Below are positions 21,001 to 27,000 of a stretch of 64,000 bases of DNA, one piece after another. This stretch comes from an uncultured Methanosarcinaceae archaeon (GTDB taxonomy: Archaea; Halobacteriota; Methanosarcinia; Methanosarcinales; Methanosarcinaceae), in NCBI GenBank assembly GCA_963833425.1, contig CAWHXP010000002.1:224001-288000 (forward strand), given 5' to 3'. Each line of letters begins with the position of its first letter. The stretch's first letter is position 1. The position numbers are program-made.

Positions 21001-24000
21001 TATCAGATCATACAACGCTTCGATATCTAAATCGCCGCATTCTTCCGTTTTTTCTTTTTCAAAATGCTTTGCTGTGATTAATTCATCAAGGTTCAGTATT
21101 TTATGCATCCTGGGTCACCTTCTTCCTGCTTTCTTATTCTTCAGCTTCCAATATCTCTGGACAAGAAGCAAATCCAAACTAAATTAAGTGTATTAGATTT
21201 TTGCATACGCGTCGTCCTAGAGATAAATCAGATAGATCCAAATAATTGTCAGGCATGTTAAGCAATTTATATGACTCTTTTTTGTATCAACTTGTGATAG
21301 ATATGATTGTGTCTCTGATCTAGATGTTTATTTGTAGAAGTTGGTAATTCATTTTATTACTAAGGTTCTAGTCTTTAAGCTATACATCCTTATTATAATT
21401 ATCAGTAGTTCCGATTTTATGCAGTTCCGAATGATTACTATTATTTTTGCCAATTTTTCCTAAGTTATTCACAAGAAAGAAATTATCCATTAATCTTGAT
21501 CCAATTTTTTTGTAATCGTCCCTAAAAATTCAACGTTATAAAGTTATAAAGTAGAAATTAGGTATAATTTTACTAAGCTATTTCGTAATTTTTGTGAGTA
21601 TATTTTTGAGTTCATTAATCTAGTGCCAACGCTGAATTGATAGTGTGCCTGAAGTTCTGTAAAGTGTGATTGATTCTGCATTCTTTATATTCAACGCAAA
21701 AATTAGGATGCAGAGCAAATTATTTTACTAACAAATATTACGTTTCAATTGTTTTCACTAATGCATATTTTTAAAATAAAAATTATGCATCCGTGAACAT
21801 AAGAAAGGCAGATATTTTCTAAGCATAACTACGGACTCAGAATCCTGTAATCTTTTACATAACTTTTGGTACGCCGTCAATCAGTTTAATCATGTACTTT
21901 CTGTTAAATTAAAAAAGGAGTTTTTTGACTCCTTATTTTTTTAGTCACTATCTAACGTGTTATCCCCAATTCAAGGGAAGAAATGTACTATACCCCGACT
22001 CATGGTGGAATCCATGTTTTTCTGAGCACTTGTTTACATTAATATAATCAGTCTTTGATGCACTAGCGTATTTTGTACTATCAGCTGGCACGAAAGTAAC
22101 GTGCAATGGCTGATTTTGACCTGTACTTAATACAGCGTCTACATCTGGATTATAGTAGAAAATGCCAGGTATCGTGGCTCCAGATACTGGATCTAAAGCA
22201 CTTGCATCTAATTGATCATAGCTCAATGGCATTCCCTGACATATGTCAGCAGGATTATTCCAGGTAATGGAATGGGTGTCTGCGATGTTGGAGAACGCCG
22301 AGTCGGCTGAAGTATGCGGGAAGCCTGCCGAGGGTGTGGGGTATACTGTAGTATCTCCAACCACGTTGTTAGCCTGAACCCTGTAGTAGTATCTCTTATT
22401 CTGCTTGATCGTGGTATCGGTGTACTTGACCACGTTTGGCCCGACCATGAAGGTAGTCAATCCCACCGTGAAGCTCGGGTCATCCGCCCTTTGGATGGTG
22501 AAGCCAGTCTCCGAGATCGAGTTGTCCTTCCAGGATAATTCCACGCTGCTCCCCTTAGGAGTTGCTTTCAGGTCGGTGGGCTGCCTCGGCGCAACTGCGA
22601 AGATCTCTGCGTGCATCATGTCATTCTCTTCGTGGCCCAGGACGTGGCAATGGTATACGTACTCCCAGCCGTAGTTGACCTTGTGGTTGACCGCTGTCAC
22701 CGGGTTGCCCTGTGGGTCCTTGTATCCACCGAGCGGTCCTTGCAGGACCACGCCGTCAGGCATGGATGGATCAATAGAGCGGATGACGTTGGGAATCTCA
22801 AAGGGCTGGTTCTTGGGGGTTGTCGGCCGAAGAGCCACGATCGCGAAAGTCATCGGGTTCACTCTGACTGTCTCCTTCCAGCCCAGCTCGTTGGCGTCGG
22901 GAAGCACTATCTTACCATCCATGGCCAAGCGGTTGATCAGCTGTACGTTGTACAGATGGAAGTGCATGGGATGGGTGTCTCCGCCGTTGTGCGTGATCTT
23001 CCAAATCTGGGTTCCATCGCTAGCCACCGCCAGCGGCTCACTAATGACTTTAGAGTCATTAATGATCTCGACCGGTGGGCTGACGTAGGGGTACAGAATG
23101 TAGTTCTGGGTCCCGGAGGTCGGGGATAGTTCAAGCCCCAGCAAGCCGATCATGCGCCCGTAGTCGAGGTCATACGCATAGGGCATCATGTCCTGAATGG
23201 CCTTCTGTTGCAGCGGGATAGTCACCGTTTTCCCAGAGAGCGTCGTGAATGTCAGGGAATTTACACCGTTGCTCACGTTCTGGTCAGGGAAATTCGCGTT
23301 GTACGCACTGTTGTAGCTTGGCTGCGGCACTAAGATGGGATCCTGGCTCGTCTCGAAGACACCCCTCTTCATTGTGGTCTTGGCAAACGTTGCGTTCAAT
23401 GCGGCTAGATTATAGGGAGCGAGGGGCTGGCCATCCGATCTCGTGGCGCTCACGTTGATTTGCATAATAGTCCTGGTATTGGGACCGTAGCCTGCCTGGG
23501 TCGAAGGTGCCCCGCCAATGTTTGTCTGGTCAGGGTCGCCCGTATAGTAGTCGTAGCGGCTGTCGGGCGCTGGGAACCCAGCGGGAGCGTCGTTGTACAG
23601 GATGAGGGTCTTGCCGGCGTACTTCGAGAAGTCAACGATGACGTCGGCCCGCTCGGCACAGCCCAGCAACAGAGAGTGCTTGTCTACGTTGCCGAAGTTG
23701 GAGGAGGTCGGGTCCATGTTCCATGTGATCGGCTGGCTGTCGATGACAGCCGGCGCGGGCAGGAAGCCGCCTTCAGTGCCTATTTGGTAGAACGAAGGGC
23801 CCGCAGTCTTTGGATCTGGCACTCCGCCTGTATCTAATCTAGCGCTTGTCGCTGGGACCATGCTGACCTCAGTATTAGTCCTGCCGTCCGCTGTGACGAT
23901 CGTCGAGTTGGCCACGTACAGCTGCAGGTTCCAGAACCGGTCGTTTGCAGCGTTCAGGATACGGAACCTGTAGGCCTTTGGCTCGACATCTAAGGACGGG

Positions 24001-27000
24001 TAGGCTGCGCCGTTGATCAAGGGCGTATCCATATACGCTTCCATCACCAAGGATGGGTGGGGAGTACCGGGTATCATTGGCGGTTCCCATGGCGCATTGA
24101 CCGGGTCATAATATGGGTTCTTGATTGGCGGGTATTTGAGATCTGGAGCCGGCGCACTCAGATTGAACCAAGCGGCGTAGTCCCACCTACCGAAGGGGTT
24201 AATCGGATTCACCGACGAGTTGTTCTGGGTGGGCATGTACACGTGAGGGTACCAGATATCACCGGTATTGGGCACTGGTGGAGTCGTCCCCCACTTCCAA
24301 GTCGGGTCCTGGGCGGAGATCGTGCTTTTGTCCACAAATATCTTGTCCTGAATGATCAGGGGTGTGCCGAGGCCCGGTAACAACTTCTGCAAGCCCGGAT
24401 TGACGCCCGTTACGTTTGTCCCCGCTATCAGATCCTGCTCGACTTTATCTGTTATCAGGTAGCCTGCGGCTTCGCCCGCGTACACATTCAAGCGGGTGAT
24501 ACCCCATGCGTGGTCGTGGAAGAACATCAGCCGGGCACTCTGCTCGTTATTGTAGTAGAAGGTTAACGTACCTTGGGGCTCATATCCGCCATCCATGTCC
24601 GGGACGTTGTATACGCTCACGCCTTGGGGATACGAGGTCTTCTCACCTGAGGGGGTCGTCCACATGTGAGGTGAACCATCGCTGATCCACGGGACGAAGC
24701 CACCGTGCAGGTGAATATCAGCCCGATTCTCAGTGTAATTCATCGGCTTAGCATCCATGCCTAGCGGACCCATACCCGCGCCCATGGCCGTGTGATCCAC
24801 AGGTATGAATAGGTTGCCGGCGTCACCAGTCGGAAGTTTGTTAATGAACTTGATACGTACCGGCCTGTCCTTATTAGCGATGACTAGGGGTCCCAGATAG
24901 CTGAACTTGCTCAACGTTTTATCTTCGGTATTGACCTGCCGGTAGCCGCGCAGCGTGGTGGTGGGTAGATCTTTATGCAGCTTTTCGGTGTACTGGCCCA
25001 GCTCGATCACGTAGTAATCGCAGCCAGGGTACGTTTTCGTGTCCGGAACGGCGATCGGGATATACTGCCCATTCTGGTTGGCGTTCGTCGCTCCCAGGCC
25101 TGGCAGCCGGTCGACGAACTTTCGTATGCCTCCGTTGATCGAGCCCGTGGTATCACCTATCGTCGCCGTGGCCATCGCCCCGGTGCCCTGGGGGTCGGTC
25201 GCGTTCATGATCGTAACTACCGGGGCGGTATAGTCCTTGCCGCCCCAGGTCAGCACGATGTTGGTGATAGCACCCGTTCCATTCGCCGTCGCCGTTGCAG
25301 TTGCCCCCGTCCCAGTACCGTAAACGTCGTCAATTAAGACGATTGGATTCAGATAGCCTGTGCCTGGAGCATCAAGCGTGATGCCTGTGATGGGGCCCTT
25401 AGGTAATGGTGTATAAGCATAGTTAGGATAGGGGCCGAAGTAATGGGGCACTTCGCTGGGAGACGTCACGGGTTGAACTTTTCTAGCTTTGTTTGCCGAA
25501 TGCGTCGTCTTGAAGTTAGCAGCCGCATCCTCCCTTTTAGCCGGTAATATCTGAGTCTTATACCAGAGGCCATGCTTTTTGGTAATGTCCATGCTAGCGA
25601 TAGAATTGCCATTGGGAACAACTTTAGCTTCGGAGGCGAGAGTGTTCAGCGGTACAGTCGCAAACAATATTACGACAATGATCGATATTGATGCAAATCG
25701 CTTCATGAGATCGATCGCGCTCTTTTGTTTATGTATCGGTTTCACTATGTTTCCTCCTGTCGGGAAATAGCAAATTTGAAATGCTGTAGTGTCAATTGCC
25801 TTCTGGTTTCCCCTGTCGGCTAATCCGCGTGTTCAAGCCCATTTATCCACGTGTTCACGGAAGTTGGGTCATAAATGTCATGATGGTCATATTTAGCAAA
25901 TATTTTATACTGTAACTGGTTGCCCGATATTTATGCGATCTCTTGGCATGTGTATATCCATTCGAGATCAGCACTATTAGCAGATGCAAGGGAAGATAAC
26001 CGAATCGTATTGTGATGGCAACAGGTAGGATGAGCAGCACTCACCTTGGCAGATTTTTAAAATCTCTCTCTGTAAGCCTTTGGGTCACAGTGTTCGTTAT
26101 CTTTAATGATCACTACCCAGGAGGGATTGATCAACGTACTTTTAACTGTGTAAATTATCCACTCATGTTTTAAATCTGAGGATAAATAACTTTCTGCCAA
26201 AAGGTATTATGTTAAGGATGACACCAAAAACCAACTATACGTAATAATATTATAAAATTAGTTCAATTTATGCCCTAAAAAAGTAAATAAGTAAATAGAA
26301 TAGCAAATTTGAAATTAGAAAGTTATCAGCCACGGCTATTATTTTACACCTCAAGAATAAAGTACCAACAAGGATAAGCAACTATCGAAGTTGATTTGCT
26401 GACTTGTTATGATGGTTCTAAAATGCCTATTGGCTACTCGTTTGCTACTGGAGCCTATCCAAATGTGTTGTGACCTGTTACCTTTACAATAACCAATATG
26501 ACAACCGAAACGAATACTTGGATATTATAGACCTAGTGTAATTTTACAATATATGTATCTACTTTTCGGACAGGTTCTTAGTACCTGTGACGAAATAATC
26601 TATGGAATGCATAGTTTTGTTGAAGTTAAAAGGGTATCTTGTTTGTGTAAATCATTTAATACAGTTAAATAACGCATCGCTTATTTCGCTACGTGATCCT
26701 TTTATTTGGTACTAATCTAATTTTTTTAGATTGTTGATGCGAAAATTAGGGGCAGTCTAAAATGTGTGTCATATAAATAGAGATATCTTATTGGTTTTCA
26801 GATTATTCATTAACCCCGCACATCGATACATTTTGATTAATTAGGTTTATTGGTTATGCTTTCTATGTGAGAATTATAAGAACTTATCACACACCCTACG
26901 CATAAAAACCGAAATTGGGTAACGTTTTTTTATTTTTGTGTTAATTTTATTTAAATTGATAGAAAAACTGTCTGAAAATATATTATAAAAACCTATCAAC

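Follow-up and report, generated by a model that had tools for sequence, protein, structure and literature searches.

An intact giant multicopper oxidase gene of putative OmpB/MofA type, joined to a host-type surface domain, in a Methanosarcinaceae archaeon

Outer-surface multicopper proteins of very large size are described from strict anaerobes of the genus Geobacter: OmpB (GSU1394) and OmpC (GSU2657) of Geobacter sulfurreducens and Gmet_2163 of G. metallireducens. OmpB/OmpC is the sole member of the family with genetics, and in the available portions of the source papers the phenotype given for its mutants is that anaerobic Fe(III)-oxide reduction is lost, rather than one involving O2 (PMC5566968, PMC4330893). 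MofA of Leptothrix discophora, a putative Mn(II) oxidase that is also large and exported, is placed in the same homologous family in the available text of PMC5566968; its host is an aerobic Mn oxidiser, and its operon (mofABC) adds a peptidyl-prolyl isomerase, MofB, and a cytochrome, MofC. Smaller relatives with the three-cupredoxin fold are CotA of Bacillus subtilis, a spore-coat enzyme of ∼513 residues, and the B. pumilus bilirubin oxidase (1gsk, 7z5p, 9bd5). Giant multicopper oxidases are also found in Methanoperedens, where they measure 1550–1680 aa, end in tandem Fn3 tails and adjoin an HTH_3 regulator.

The window analysed here is a stretch of 64,000 nucleotides from contig CAWHXP010000002.1 of an uncultured Methanosarcinaceae archaeon (GCA_963833425.1), and its features are collected in Table 1. 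A genome-wide survey's note had reported an uninterrupted, secreted laccase-type oxidase of 1261 aa at this locus. The ORF listing and the translation bear this out: there is a single open frame with a GTG start and zero internal stops. The start is supported by the AGGAGG sequence 7 nt upstream and by relatives that open with the same N-terminal peptide pattern; the N-terminus is kept in P0003, P0005, P0007 and P0009. The export signal claimed in the note is also recognizable by inspection, with a basic n-region followed by the hydrophobic stretch FASISIIVVILFATVPL and by ASEA. As a twin arginine is absent from the signal, export is probably of the Sec type.

Table 1. Features of the oxidase locus (positions along the window)
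Feature	Position	Strand	Basis
Whole gene, predicted OmpB/MofA-type giant multicopper oxidase	21960..25745	-	1261 codons + stop, ORF listing
Shine-Dalgarno-like AGGAGG	25753..25758	-	7 nt 5′ of GTG start, direct reading
Putative N-terminal export signal, residues 1-40	25626..25745	-	Inspection of translation
Family-conserved N-terminal module, residues ∼95-206	25128..25463	-	A1 consensus; two Gly/Thr/Ala-rich repeats
Three-cupredoxin-domain oxidase core, residues 207-1050	22596..25127	-	PDB-sequence matches, AF2 model, Foldseek
Copper motif 1 IHLHGG, residues 344-349 (His345, His347)	24699..24716	-	Translation; invariant columns in alignment A1
Copper motif 2 FHDHAWG, residues 409-415 (His410, His412)	24501..24521	-	Translation; alignment A1
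Copper motif 3 HPMHFHL, residues 925-931 (His925, His928, His930)	22953..22973	-	Translation; alignment A1
Copper motif 4 HCHVLGHEENDMM, residues 1032-1044	22614..22652	-	Translation; CotA alignment; A1
Putative fibronectin type III domain, residues 1055-1132	22350..22583	-	Pfam fn3 (E 1.3e-3) + relatives
C-terminal ∼107 residues, host-type surface repeat domain	21963..22283	-	GC3 blocks, homology breakpoint, best matches
Terminator-like hairpin, then T-run	21909..21936	-	Just 3′ of stop codon, direct reading
∼5.1-kb segment in common with L128, 76-80%	21648..26713	.	blastn
End of synteny with closest sisters G044, G045, G049 (87-90% identical)	21632..21686	.	Genome comparison

The four copper motifs named in the note are all in place. 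The protein keeps 12 of 12 copper-ligand residues, and alignment A1, which comprises 20 sequences, shows no variation in the ligand columns. Motif 4 provides His1032, Cys1033, His1034, His1038 and the axial Met1043 with the same Cys-His-Met spacing as CotA; the type-1 site is complete (His, Cys, His and axial Met), and the trinuclear cluster has 8 of 8 histidines. Matches to PDB sequences are to CotA-type laccase and bilirubin oxidase (E 8e-34 to 3e-32, identity just 20–23%) in five collinear stretches, from which the core is ∼324 residues longer than that of CotA, in line with the ∼330 aa of insertions estimated earlier. The AF2 model (pLDDT 79.5, pTM 0.88) retrieves CotA and laccases in Foldseek with a TM on target of 0.80–0.82, and the Pfam Cu-oxidase_2 match (E 9.4e-9) passes its cut-off. 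The N-terminal module has no Pfam match at E≤10. The fn3 match scores 19.3 bits, under the 25-bit cut-off, and the same residues are conserved, and annotated as fn3, in many relatives. Sequence and model together predict an exported CotA-like three-domain multicopper oxidase with a full copper-ligand set and a core enlarged by insertions, which unlike CotA also carries an export signal and N-terminal, Fn3 and C-terminal modules.

The family to which this protein belongs is large. A homologue search gave 5944 matches among 8000 scored candidates, and at least 6323 cluster representatives (50% identity) were found at E≤1e-3, with 1583 at E≤1e-30; among pattern matches in species genomes, at least 704 of 710 encode relatives. 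The full trinuclear site is conserved across the family. The named holders are mostly anaerobes (Methanoregulaceae, Methanothrix, Methanoperedens, Clostridium, Bathyarchaeota, Geobacteraceae). Among Geobacteraceae, for which the sample was the family to which a Geobacter MAG belongs, 43 of 81 genomes carry a homologue, with 51–57% identity across the whole core. In one of these genomes, G431, three genes lie ahead of the oxidase, coding for an FKBP isomerase, SCO1/SenC and a protein that has a periplasmic-binding domain and a single CxxCH; this neighbourhood is the ompB/mofA cluster signature as given in the available part of PMC5566968. The archaeal protein is thus predicted to be one of the OmpB/MofA-type giant exported multicopper oxidases, the link being made via the Geobacteraceae homologues and the neighbourhood. 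The note had named CotA and LccA as nearest kin; the CotA-type core stands, but the closest described family is OmpB/OmpC/MofA. Its view of the enzyme as an odd tool for a strict anaerobe misleads, as the family is widespread in anaerobes, several methanogen and ANME families included. The intact gene is genuine but not unprecedented, the family being common in oxygen-avoiding microbes.

With OmpB and OmpC the protein shares very large size, export, a strictly anaerobic host, the CotA-like core, the four copper motifs and Fn3. It differs in its archaeal host, which has no outer membrane or type II secretion system, in lacking the EXXE motif of OmpB and in having a Methanosarcina-type C-terminal domain. 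No accessory genes adjoin the oxidase at this locus: SCO1/SenC and the counterparts of MofB and MofC are missing here, whereas neighbours in relatives are SCO1/SenC, MofC-like proteins, or DUF4418 with a MacB-type ABC transporter. PF02630 and PF14387 are absent from this genome's contigs (an 80% complete, 21-contig assembly). The protein of Methanoperedens BLZ2 shares 59% identity with this oxidase across the core, but the Methanoperedens oxidases fall in another subclade and are without the Methanosarcina-type tail.

The high G+C reported in the note is confirmed (0.54 for the gene vs 0.358 genome-wide), together with the caution that it does not by itself prove transfer. Raw G+C is a weak argument here and GC3 the informative measure, since the first two codon positions of the gene have a G+C of ∼0.50 whatever the host; in other low-GC hosts, GC3 of the oxidase gene follows the host. 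The core has a GC3 of 0.72, and does look foreign: among host ORFs of at least 300 aa the median is 0.36 and the 95th percentile 0.53. The C-terminal domain, by comparison, lies at 0.30–0.38 in 50-codon blocks and is in frame with the core. Its best matches are Methanosarcina proteins (64–69% identity), and it also repeats in PKD/propeller surface proteins; no Pfam family was found for it. Homology to the G047 copy ends at 22282, and the G047 frame closes at about residue 1161. Core and tail are arranged alike, with the same junction, in L128 and P0004, two sequences from other assemblies. The gene is a mosaic, with a high-GC3 foreign core fused at residue ∼1155 to a Methanosarcina-type surface domain. 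The note had listed a C-terminal extension but missed its host-type character and composition. What unusually sets the gene apart is this joining of a known family core to the host's own cell-surface module, a gain that suggests use after arrival.

The five closest sister genomes lack the oxidase, as the note had stated, and sister synteny ends ∼300 bp from the gene. The segment in common with L128 extends beyond the gene by ∼970 bp on the upstream side and ∼310 bp on the downstream side, and the L128 flanks differ. L128 is a Methanosarcina-like metagenome contig. Copies of the gene sit in differing genomic contexts. Among the matches listed, the core is present in 2 of 59 genomes of the genus (intact here, disrupted in G047) and in 2 of 176 other genomes of Methanosarcinaceae. 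"Almost unique in the genus" therefore holds for species genomes but overlooks a metagenomic subclade of environmental relatives, 66–82% identical, one member of which is labelled Methanosarcina sp. by NCBI; two contigs of the subclade have Methanosarcina-like flanks. The GC3 outlier, the rarity, the absence from sisters and the differing contexts argue for horizontal transfer of the core, and acquisition by the Methanosarcina lineage from an anaerobic donor forms part of the best explanation.

That explanation, with a probability of roughly 0.6, is an intact OmpB/MofA-type oxidase with a transferred core and a host tail, predicted to reduce O2 while held at the cell surface. The most likely function is that of a putative surface-held oxidase acting on Fe(II), Mn(II) or phenolics. 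The core would have arrived by horizontal transfer, giving rise to a Methanosarcina-associated subclade, and its fusion with a host surface domain would have taken place in this genome's own lineage. The protein would be exported unfolded and take up copper outside the cell, where the Fn3 and C-terminal domains might hold it at the surface. On exposure to traces of O2, the type-1 copper would draw single electrons from reductants outside the cell (Fe(II), Mn(II), hydroquinone or phenolic humics) and the trinuclear cluster would turn O2 into water. If so, O2 would be scavenged at the oxic-anoxic boundary, and oxidised iron or quinones would be regenerated as a by-product.

It is unlikely, although the kinship with Geobacter proteins carrying the ompB/mofA neighbourhood invites the idea, that the protein instead works anaerobically in extracellular electron transfer, as a surface component for redox or adhesion, with O2 not the physiological acceptor. 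Partners envisaged for such a role are Fe(III)/Mn(IV) minerals, humics or a syntrophic partner, with electrons passing in either direction. Fn3 and the surface domain would suit contact with solids, and homologues are concentrated, at class level, in the Methanoperedens family (21 of 53 genomes) and in the family with Methanothrix-type loci (15 of 105). Methanoperedens and Methanothrix are known for extracellular electron exchange. Fe(III)-oxide reduction is reported to need OmpB and OmpC in the available text of PMC5566968, PMC4330893 and PMC10989804, and reduction of Fe(III) minerals by Methanosarcina species in that of PMC8280799. A full trinuclear O2-reducing site throughout the family is nevertheless hard to account for without O2, a mechanism is not known even for Geobacter, and OmpB/OmpC mutants are described as normal in quinone-mediated interspecies transfer (PMC4330893, available part). 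A cytochrome or redox partner is absent beside the gene and not consistent in archaeal relatives, and the missing EXXE motif also counts against such a role.

Decay of the other copies raises the question of whether this frame is open by chance, in a relic nearing loss that is no longer selected and is not made or is inactive. The note's broken orthologue (G058 there, G047 here) is confirmed: its frame changes at least 7 times and also contains stops. In L128, stops and frame changes are accompanied by loss of the HxxHxH motif, and L131/L132 have a 2.2-kb deletion. That all other inspected genomic copies in Methanosarcina-type DNA are broken suggests that the gene is dispensable there, and sequence comparison points to a Methanosarcina-associated subclade in which the genomic copies elsewhere in the genus are probably, for the most part, decaying. 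Of 266 positions that are at least 90% conserved, the protein of this genome differs at 18 (6.8%); other members differ at a median of 2.6% (range 0.4–10.7%), and the two broken copies at 8.4% and 9.9%. Constraint on the gene may thus have relaxed. Absence from the sisters and the lack of accessory copper genes in the 80% complete genome fit as well. A relic is still improbable, since a 3786-base frame without stop or frameshift would hardly last unselected in a 36% G+C genome, and the copper ligands, Shine-Dalgarno sequence, signal and terminator-like hairpin are all intact. Values of dN/dS of 0.23 vs G047 and 0.39 vs L128, each obtained with a pseudogene as one partner, are counted as support for past purifying selection; full-length relatives of 1122–1184 aa occur in the same subclade, and the gained surface domain hints at later use.

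A role in copper or iron homeostasis, as a CueO- or Fet3p-like cuprous oxidase or ferroxidase that guards against Cu(I) or prepares iron for import, is very doubtful. There is a weak NCBIfam CueO match (E 3.9e-13, 49 bits), far under the 525-bit cut-off, and copper-handling neighbours accompany some relatives (SCO1/SenC in G431, a NosD-like protein in L035). The sequence, however, has no apparent CueO-type Met-rich insert (Met 2.4% of residues), in sequence and fold the protein is nearest to CotA and bilirubin oxidase, its size, Fn3 and surface domain are foreign to CueO, and its signal is not of the Tat type. That the gene is not this methanogen's at all, through an assembly chimera or bin contamination, is hardly credible, and the note had already called a chimera unlikely: the assembly is incomplete and the gene's G+C is sharply unlike that of its flanks, but it lies mid-contig between native flanks 87–90% identical to sister genomes, its tail is of host type and in frame, homologues with Methanosarcina-like flanks occur in two other assemblies (G047, L128), and the core-tail junction recurs in L128 and P0004. 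The second, fragmentary multicopper oxidase mentioned in the note is also seen in this genome, at C6:105927-106399, with PF07731.

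The oxidase gene is one uninterrupted frame of 1261 codons starting with GTG, with AGGAGG 7 nt 5′ of the start and a hairpin and T-run directly 3′ of the stop codon. The GTG, and not the ATG 13 codons further on, is the likely start, because four relatives open with the same N-terminal peptide pattern (MK.I....SAIDL.KRFASI...). The translated sequence displays an N-terminal export signal, recognized by inspection, without a twin arginine. It also carries HxH, HxH, HxxHxH and HCHxxxHxxxxM, which together provide one Cys, ten His and the axial Met. All 12 ligand positions are retained, the ligand columns are invariant in an alignment of 20 sequences, and the type-1 site has the Cys-x4-His-x4-Met spacing of CotA. 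The intact 1261-aa frame and the four copper motifs described in the genome-wide survey's note are thus both borne out; its G+C contrast of 54% versus 36% was recovered as 0.54 for the gene and 0.358 for the genome, and the core insertions, put there at ~330 aa, come to about 324 residues beyond CotA by PDB sequence matches.

Pfam places Cu-oxidase_2 above its cut-off and fn3 (residues 1055–1132) just under it; the fn3 stretch is kept, and annotated as such, in relatives. At E ≤ 10, Pfam matches neither the N-terminal module nor the C-terminal domain. CotA-type laccases and bilirubin oxidase (PDB sequences) match in five collinear stretches at E 8e-34 to 3e-32. A first AlphaFold model built from 20 sequences had a mean pLDDT of 52 and was discarded; a second, from 50 sequences, reached pLDDT 79.5 and pTM 0.88. 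With this model, Foldseek matched CotA, Bacillus laccases and bilirubin oxidase full-length (E 2e-36 to about 1e-35; TM on target 0.80–0.82; 20–23% identity), and the predicted fold comprises three cupredoxin domains arranged as in CotA. The insertions in the core are covered by no solved structure. By sequence and predicted fold, the protein is identified as a three-domain multicopper oxidase that carries an export signal and whose copper site is complete. Its gene is real and unbroken and belongs to an already known family.

The family is large and found mostly in anaerobes. A word-indexed search with the oxidase gave 5944 relatives at E 0.001 among 8000 scored candidates, the best 120 of which are 47–78% identical and 926–2113 aa long. 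An exhaustive search of representatives at 50% identity yielded 6323 clusters at E ≤ 1e-3, of which 1583 reach E ≤ 1e-30, and in DNA of one genome per species, 704 of the 710 pattern matches listed encode a relative. The 76 best loci carry names of archaea (Methanoregula/Methanoregulaceae, Methanosphaerula, Methanospirillum, Methanothrix/Methanotrichaceae, Methanoperedens BLZ2, to which locus L011 is identical, and Bathyarchaeota) and of bacteria (Clostridium malenominatum, C. peptidivorans, Pelotomaculum, a few Neobacillus/Bacillus, Anaerolinea, Saccharicenans, Coriobacteriia, Planctomycetota, Desulfobulbaceae and Geobacter). Of the 392 genomes in the class to which the archaeon belongs, 39 carry the core at E ≤ 1e-20. 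These include 21 of 53 in the family containing Methanoperedens, 15 of 105 in a second family, f8, and 2 of the 176 other genomes of the archaeon's own family; the remaining five families have none in 57 genomes. As holders are mostly anaerobes, Methanoperedens, Clostridium and Geobacter among them, finding an O2-type oxidase in strict anaerobes is usual for the family, and the survey's description of the gene as an odd tool for such an organism is misleading. A literature search on multicopper proteins with Methanosarcina, Methanoperedens, Methanothrix and methanogens found no description of the family in methanogens, which is not proof of absence.

A link to better-known proteins comes from Geobacter. 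According to PMC5566968, OmpB (GSU1394) is a multicopper protein of the outer surface that bears an Fn3 domain, is needed to reduce Fe(III) oxide and is a homologue of Leptothrix MofA. The same text places genes for a MofC-like cytochrome and an SCO1/SenC protein next to it, with the MofB isomerase as well in relatives, and notes EXXE as an Fe(III)-binding motif of OmpB. In a comparison seeded with a Geobacter MAG locus (L092), homologues 51–57% identical over core residues 1–840, nearly its whole length, turned up in 43 of the 81 genomes sampled from that family. In one genome (G431), a 1601-aa oxidase is directly preceded by genes for an FKBP isomerase, an SCO1/SenC protein and a periplasmic-binding-domain protein of 563 aa with one CxxCH; this set is the ompB/mofA signature published in PMC5566968. 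The oxidase can be placed provisionally and indirectly with the OmpB/OmpC/MofA type, through the Geobacteraceae homologues and this neighbourhood. It shares with the type a length of more than 1000 aa (1261 aa), the export signal and the Fn3 stretch. The roles attached to the type are reduction of Fe(III) oxides for OmpB/OmpC and oxidation of Mn(II) for MofA. None of its 1261 residues form an E..E match to EXXE, which is short and weak as a motif and has been noted in a single member. OmpB/MofA clusters have MofB (PPIase), a MofC-like cytochrome or SCO1/SenC adjacent, whereas the oxidase here is flanked by an AIR-synthase-related protein, hypothetical ORFs and a Cache-domain protein. The MofB/MofC/SCO1 set is absent at the loci of archaeal relatives too, and no PF02630 match turned up in the genome, which is 80% complete. 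Two other assignments are not supported: a CueO-type cuprous oxidase (NF008205, 49 bits against a cut-off of 525; no twin arginine; Met 2.4% of residues, where that type has a Met-rich insert) and the phenoxazinone synthase PhsA (NF045554, 104 bits against an equivalog cut-off of 950).

The reading that we prefer, with a probability of about 0.6, is a surface-held, O2-reducing oxidase. The protein would be exported by Sec and loaded with copper outside the cell, and the Fn3 and tail domains would retain it at the surface. There it would withdraw electrons one at a time from Fe(II), Mn(II) or hydroquinone and phenolic compounds and use them to turn O2 into water at times of O2 intrusion. O2 reduction is the only chemistry that we know of for such enzymes, and to our knowledge nobody has explained why strict anaerobes, several methanogen and methane-oxidiser families among them, retain a conserved oxidase. 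Its chief competitor is a role without O2 in extracellular electron transfer, of the kind proposed for OmpB/OmpC. The concentration of the family in Methanoperedens and Methanothrix-type genomes speaks for it, and the sole genetic result, that in Geobacter, indicates mineral reduction instead of O2 chemistry, but such a role leaves the conserved O2 site without explanation. In Geobacter, OmpB presumably acts as a redox terminal that faces outward. A bolder analogy, which we consider improbable, is that a Methanosarcina lineage captured an OmpB-type protein, joined its own surface-anchoring domain to it and uses it anoxically as such a terminal, for reduction of Fe(III), Mn(IV) or humics or for electron uptake from a partner. 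If that were true, giant multicopper proteins would represent a cytochrome-independent extracellular electron exchange common to Geobacter, Methanoperedens, Methanothrix and some Methanosarcina. A copper/iron homeostasis enzyme is less likely. The Methanosarcina copy is useful because the genus has genetic tools; expression there could probe O2 scavenging, metal or humic oxidation and extracellular electron transfer.

Two local aspects are of interest, a set of decaying copies in the genus and a host-derived tail. There is a Methanosarcina-associated subclade of the oxidase, and its copies are mostly decaying. Some match to the query is present in 24 of the 59 Methanosarcina genomes, this one included. 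Among the matches listed, only this genome and one other (G047) have the core, in agreement with the single other copy, with stops, that the survey reported; the rest cover only residues from ~1054 onward, mostly 1155–1261. The G047 copy has 80% DNA identity over 22282–25861 and lies in three frames with stops. Metagenome contigs hold further copies. L128, whose flanks are 87–90% identical to other parts of the present genome, shares at 76–80% the gene together with ~970 bp of upstream and ~310 bp of downstream DNA; its copy has frame changes and stops and has lost residues ~912–980, including the HxxHxH motif. An assembly artefact is among the less likely explanations. Two further contigs (L131 and L132) have a copy with a 2.2-kb internal deletion, and another (L129) has a 1-kb fragment.

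The closest database proteins (P0003–P0009) are 66–82% identical to the oxidase and form one clade with it (SH-aLRT 99–100). The tree, a quick search under LG+G4 without a mixture model, has 86 rows: the window's protein, nine proteins from the database and the 76 loci whose ORF reaches at least 1000 aa, loci with shorter ORFs and L013 being left out. Clusters of this clade contain full-length forms of 1122–1184 aa, and one 90% cluster includes an NCBI member named Methanosarcina sp. An intact copy in another genus of the same family (G228) groups with Methanoperedens (support 83), which points to a separate acquisition. A polytomy joins the Methanosarcina-associated clade to Methanomicrobiales plus Methanotrichaceae, to Chloroflexota, to a Bathyarchaeota row and to a mixed clade, and hence no donor can be named.

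The dN/dS ratio is 0.23 against G047 (1130 codons) and 0.39 against the L128 core (1010 codons), both comparisons containing a pseudogene branch. At 266 positions conserved to at least 90% among 46 other members, the oxidase departs at 18, or 6.8%, against a median of 2.6% for the others (range 0.4–10.7%), with 4–7% in its clade-mates, 9.9% in G047 and 8.4% in L128. With the intact ligands, these values make the oxidase look functional in a clade that is somewhat relaxed, and a relic gene is less likely. The repeated decay beside an intact copy argues for a benefit that is only conditional in the genus. No RNA run is listed for the oxidase stretch; two DNA runs share 0.13 and 0.06 of its words.

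Composition changes along the gene. GC3 is 0.46–0.56 over residues 1–150, 0.58–0.82 over 151–1150 and 0.30–0.38 over 1151–1261, and for the genome's stop-to-stop ORFs of at least 300 aa, some of whose top values are spurious frames, the median is 0.36 and the 95th percentile 0.53. Raw G+C says little about transfer, because codon positions 1 and 2 of the gene are at ~0.50 G+C in every host; the gene exceeds its flanks in nearly every low-GC host. GC3 follows the host in Clostridium (0.26–0.38 versus 0.20–0.23) and Neobacillus (0.31 versus 0.31) and departs from it here (0.72) and in L128 (0.69 versus 0.34). The five closest sister genomes (flanks 87–90% identical) share the left flank to ~21632–21686, without the oxidase gene, and the segment shared with L128 stops at the same place, 21648. 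On the right side, no synteny with sisters is found within 15–25 kb, so that a clean insertion site, with only the left flank shared to ~21650, was rejected. Flanking direct or inverted repeats were not found beyond AT-rich chance matches.

The tail has a composition of its own. Homology with G047 ends at 22282, the codon-usage junction, and the frame ends at about residue 1161 in G047 and likewise in P0003, P0007 and P0008; L128 and P0004 have the tail. Its best matches are Methanosarcina proteins, 64–69% identical, and many repeats of the domain occur in the genus's large PKD/propeller surface proteins. This is read as a foreign core that gained a host surface domain in one branch of the subclade, and the mosaic gene is a tidy case of a transferred enzyme given a host-specific surface domain. 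Synonymous divergence from L128 is 0.41 in the core and 0.16 in the tail; the contrast fits different histories, although it could also arise if GC-rich synonymous sites decay faster.

No conserved partner gene was found over 17 archaeal loci, only lineage-specific neighbours: DUF4418 with a MacB-type ABC transporter in three Methanoregulaceae/Methanomicrobiales loci and HTH_3 in three Methanoperedens loci. In L022, L025 and L035 (Methanoregula/Methanomicrobiales), the oxidase is divergent from DUF4418 plus FtsX, ABC ATPase and FtsX, and L035 has a NosD-like protein downstream as well. Other features are listed in the table.

Features of the oxidase region and related loci (window coordinates unless a contig or locus is named)
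Feature	Position	Strand	Remarks
Oxidase gene	21960–25745	minus	1261 aa
Oxidase tail	21963–22283	minus	C-terminal ~107 residues
A+T-rich 2.5 kb upstream of oxidase	25746–28262		first ~970 bp ~76% conserved with L128; no ORF of at least 80 aa, no Rfam match
His/Gly-rich ORF	28263–28784	minus	173 aa; signal peptide, two long His/Gly runs HGHGHG...GHGGHGG
IS240/IS6-type DDE transposase element	15842–16699		absent from sisters at this 15.8-kb site
IS240/IS6-type DDE transposase element	53736–54590		
Cache-domain sensor protein	29538–31730	plus	730 aa; multi-copy family
Repeated segment	33224–34000		96% identical copy in G049
Second copy of repeated segment	G000:C8:438426–439202		99% identical
Second, fragmentary multicopper oxidase	G000:C6:105927–106399		outside the window; short PF07731 matches in two distinct open frames (91 and 107 aa)
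Second multicopper oxidase, Bathyarchaeota	L068:2706–4853		715 aa; Tat-type signal; directly upstream of giant oxidase

The His/Gly-rich ORF looks like a secreted metal-binding protein. As a specific copper partner it was rejected, being one of many paralogues in this genus subclade (G000, G020, G021, G044, G045 and G049) and not tied to the oxidase. Further copies of the IS240/IS6-type element, 92–96% identical, are present in this genome and its sisters, and copies of the Cache-domain sensor, 78–84% identical, are found here and in many genomes of the genus. The repeated segment is probably another mobile or repeated element.
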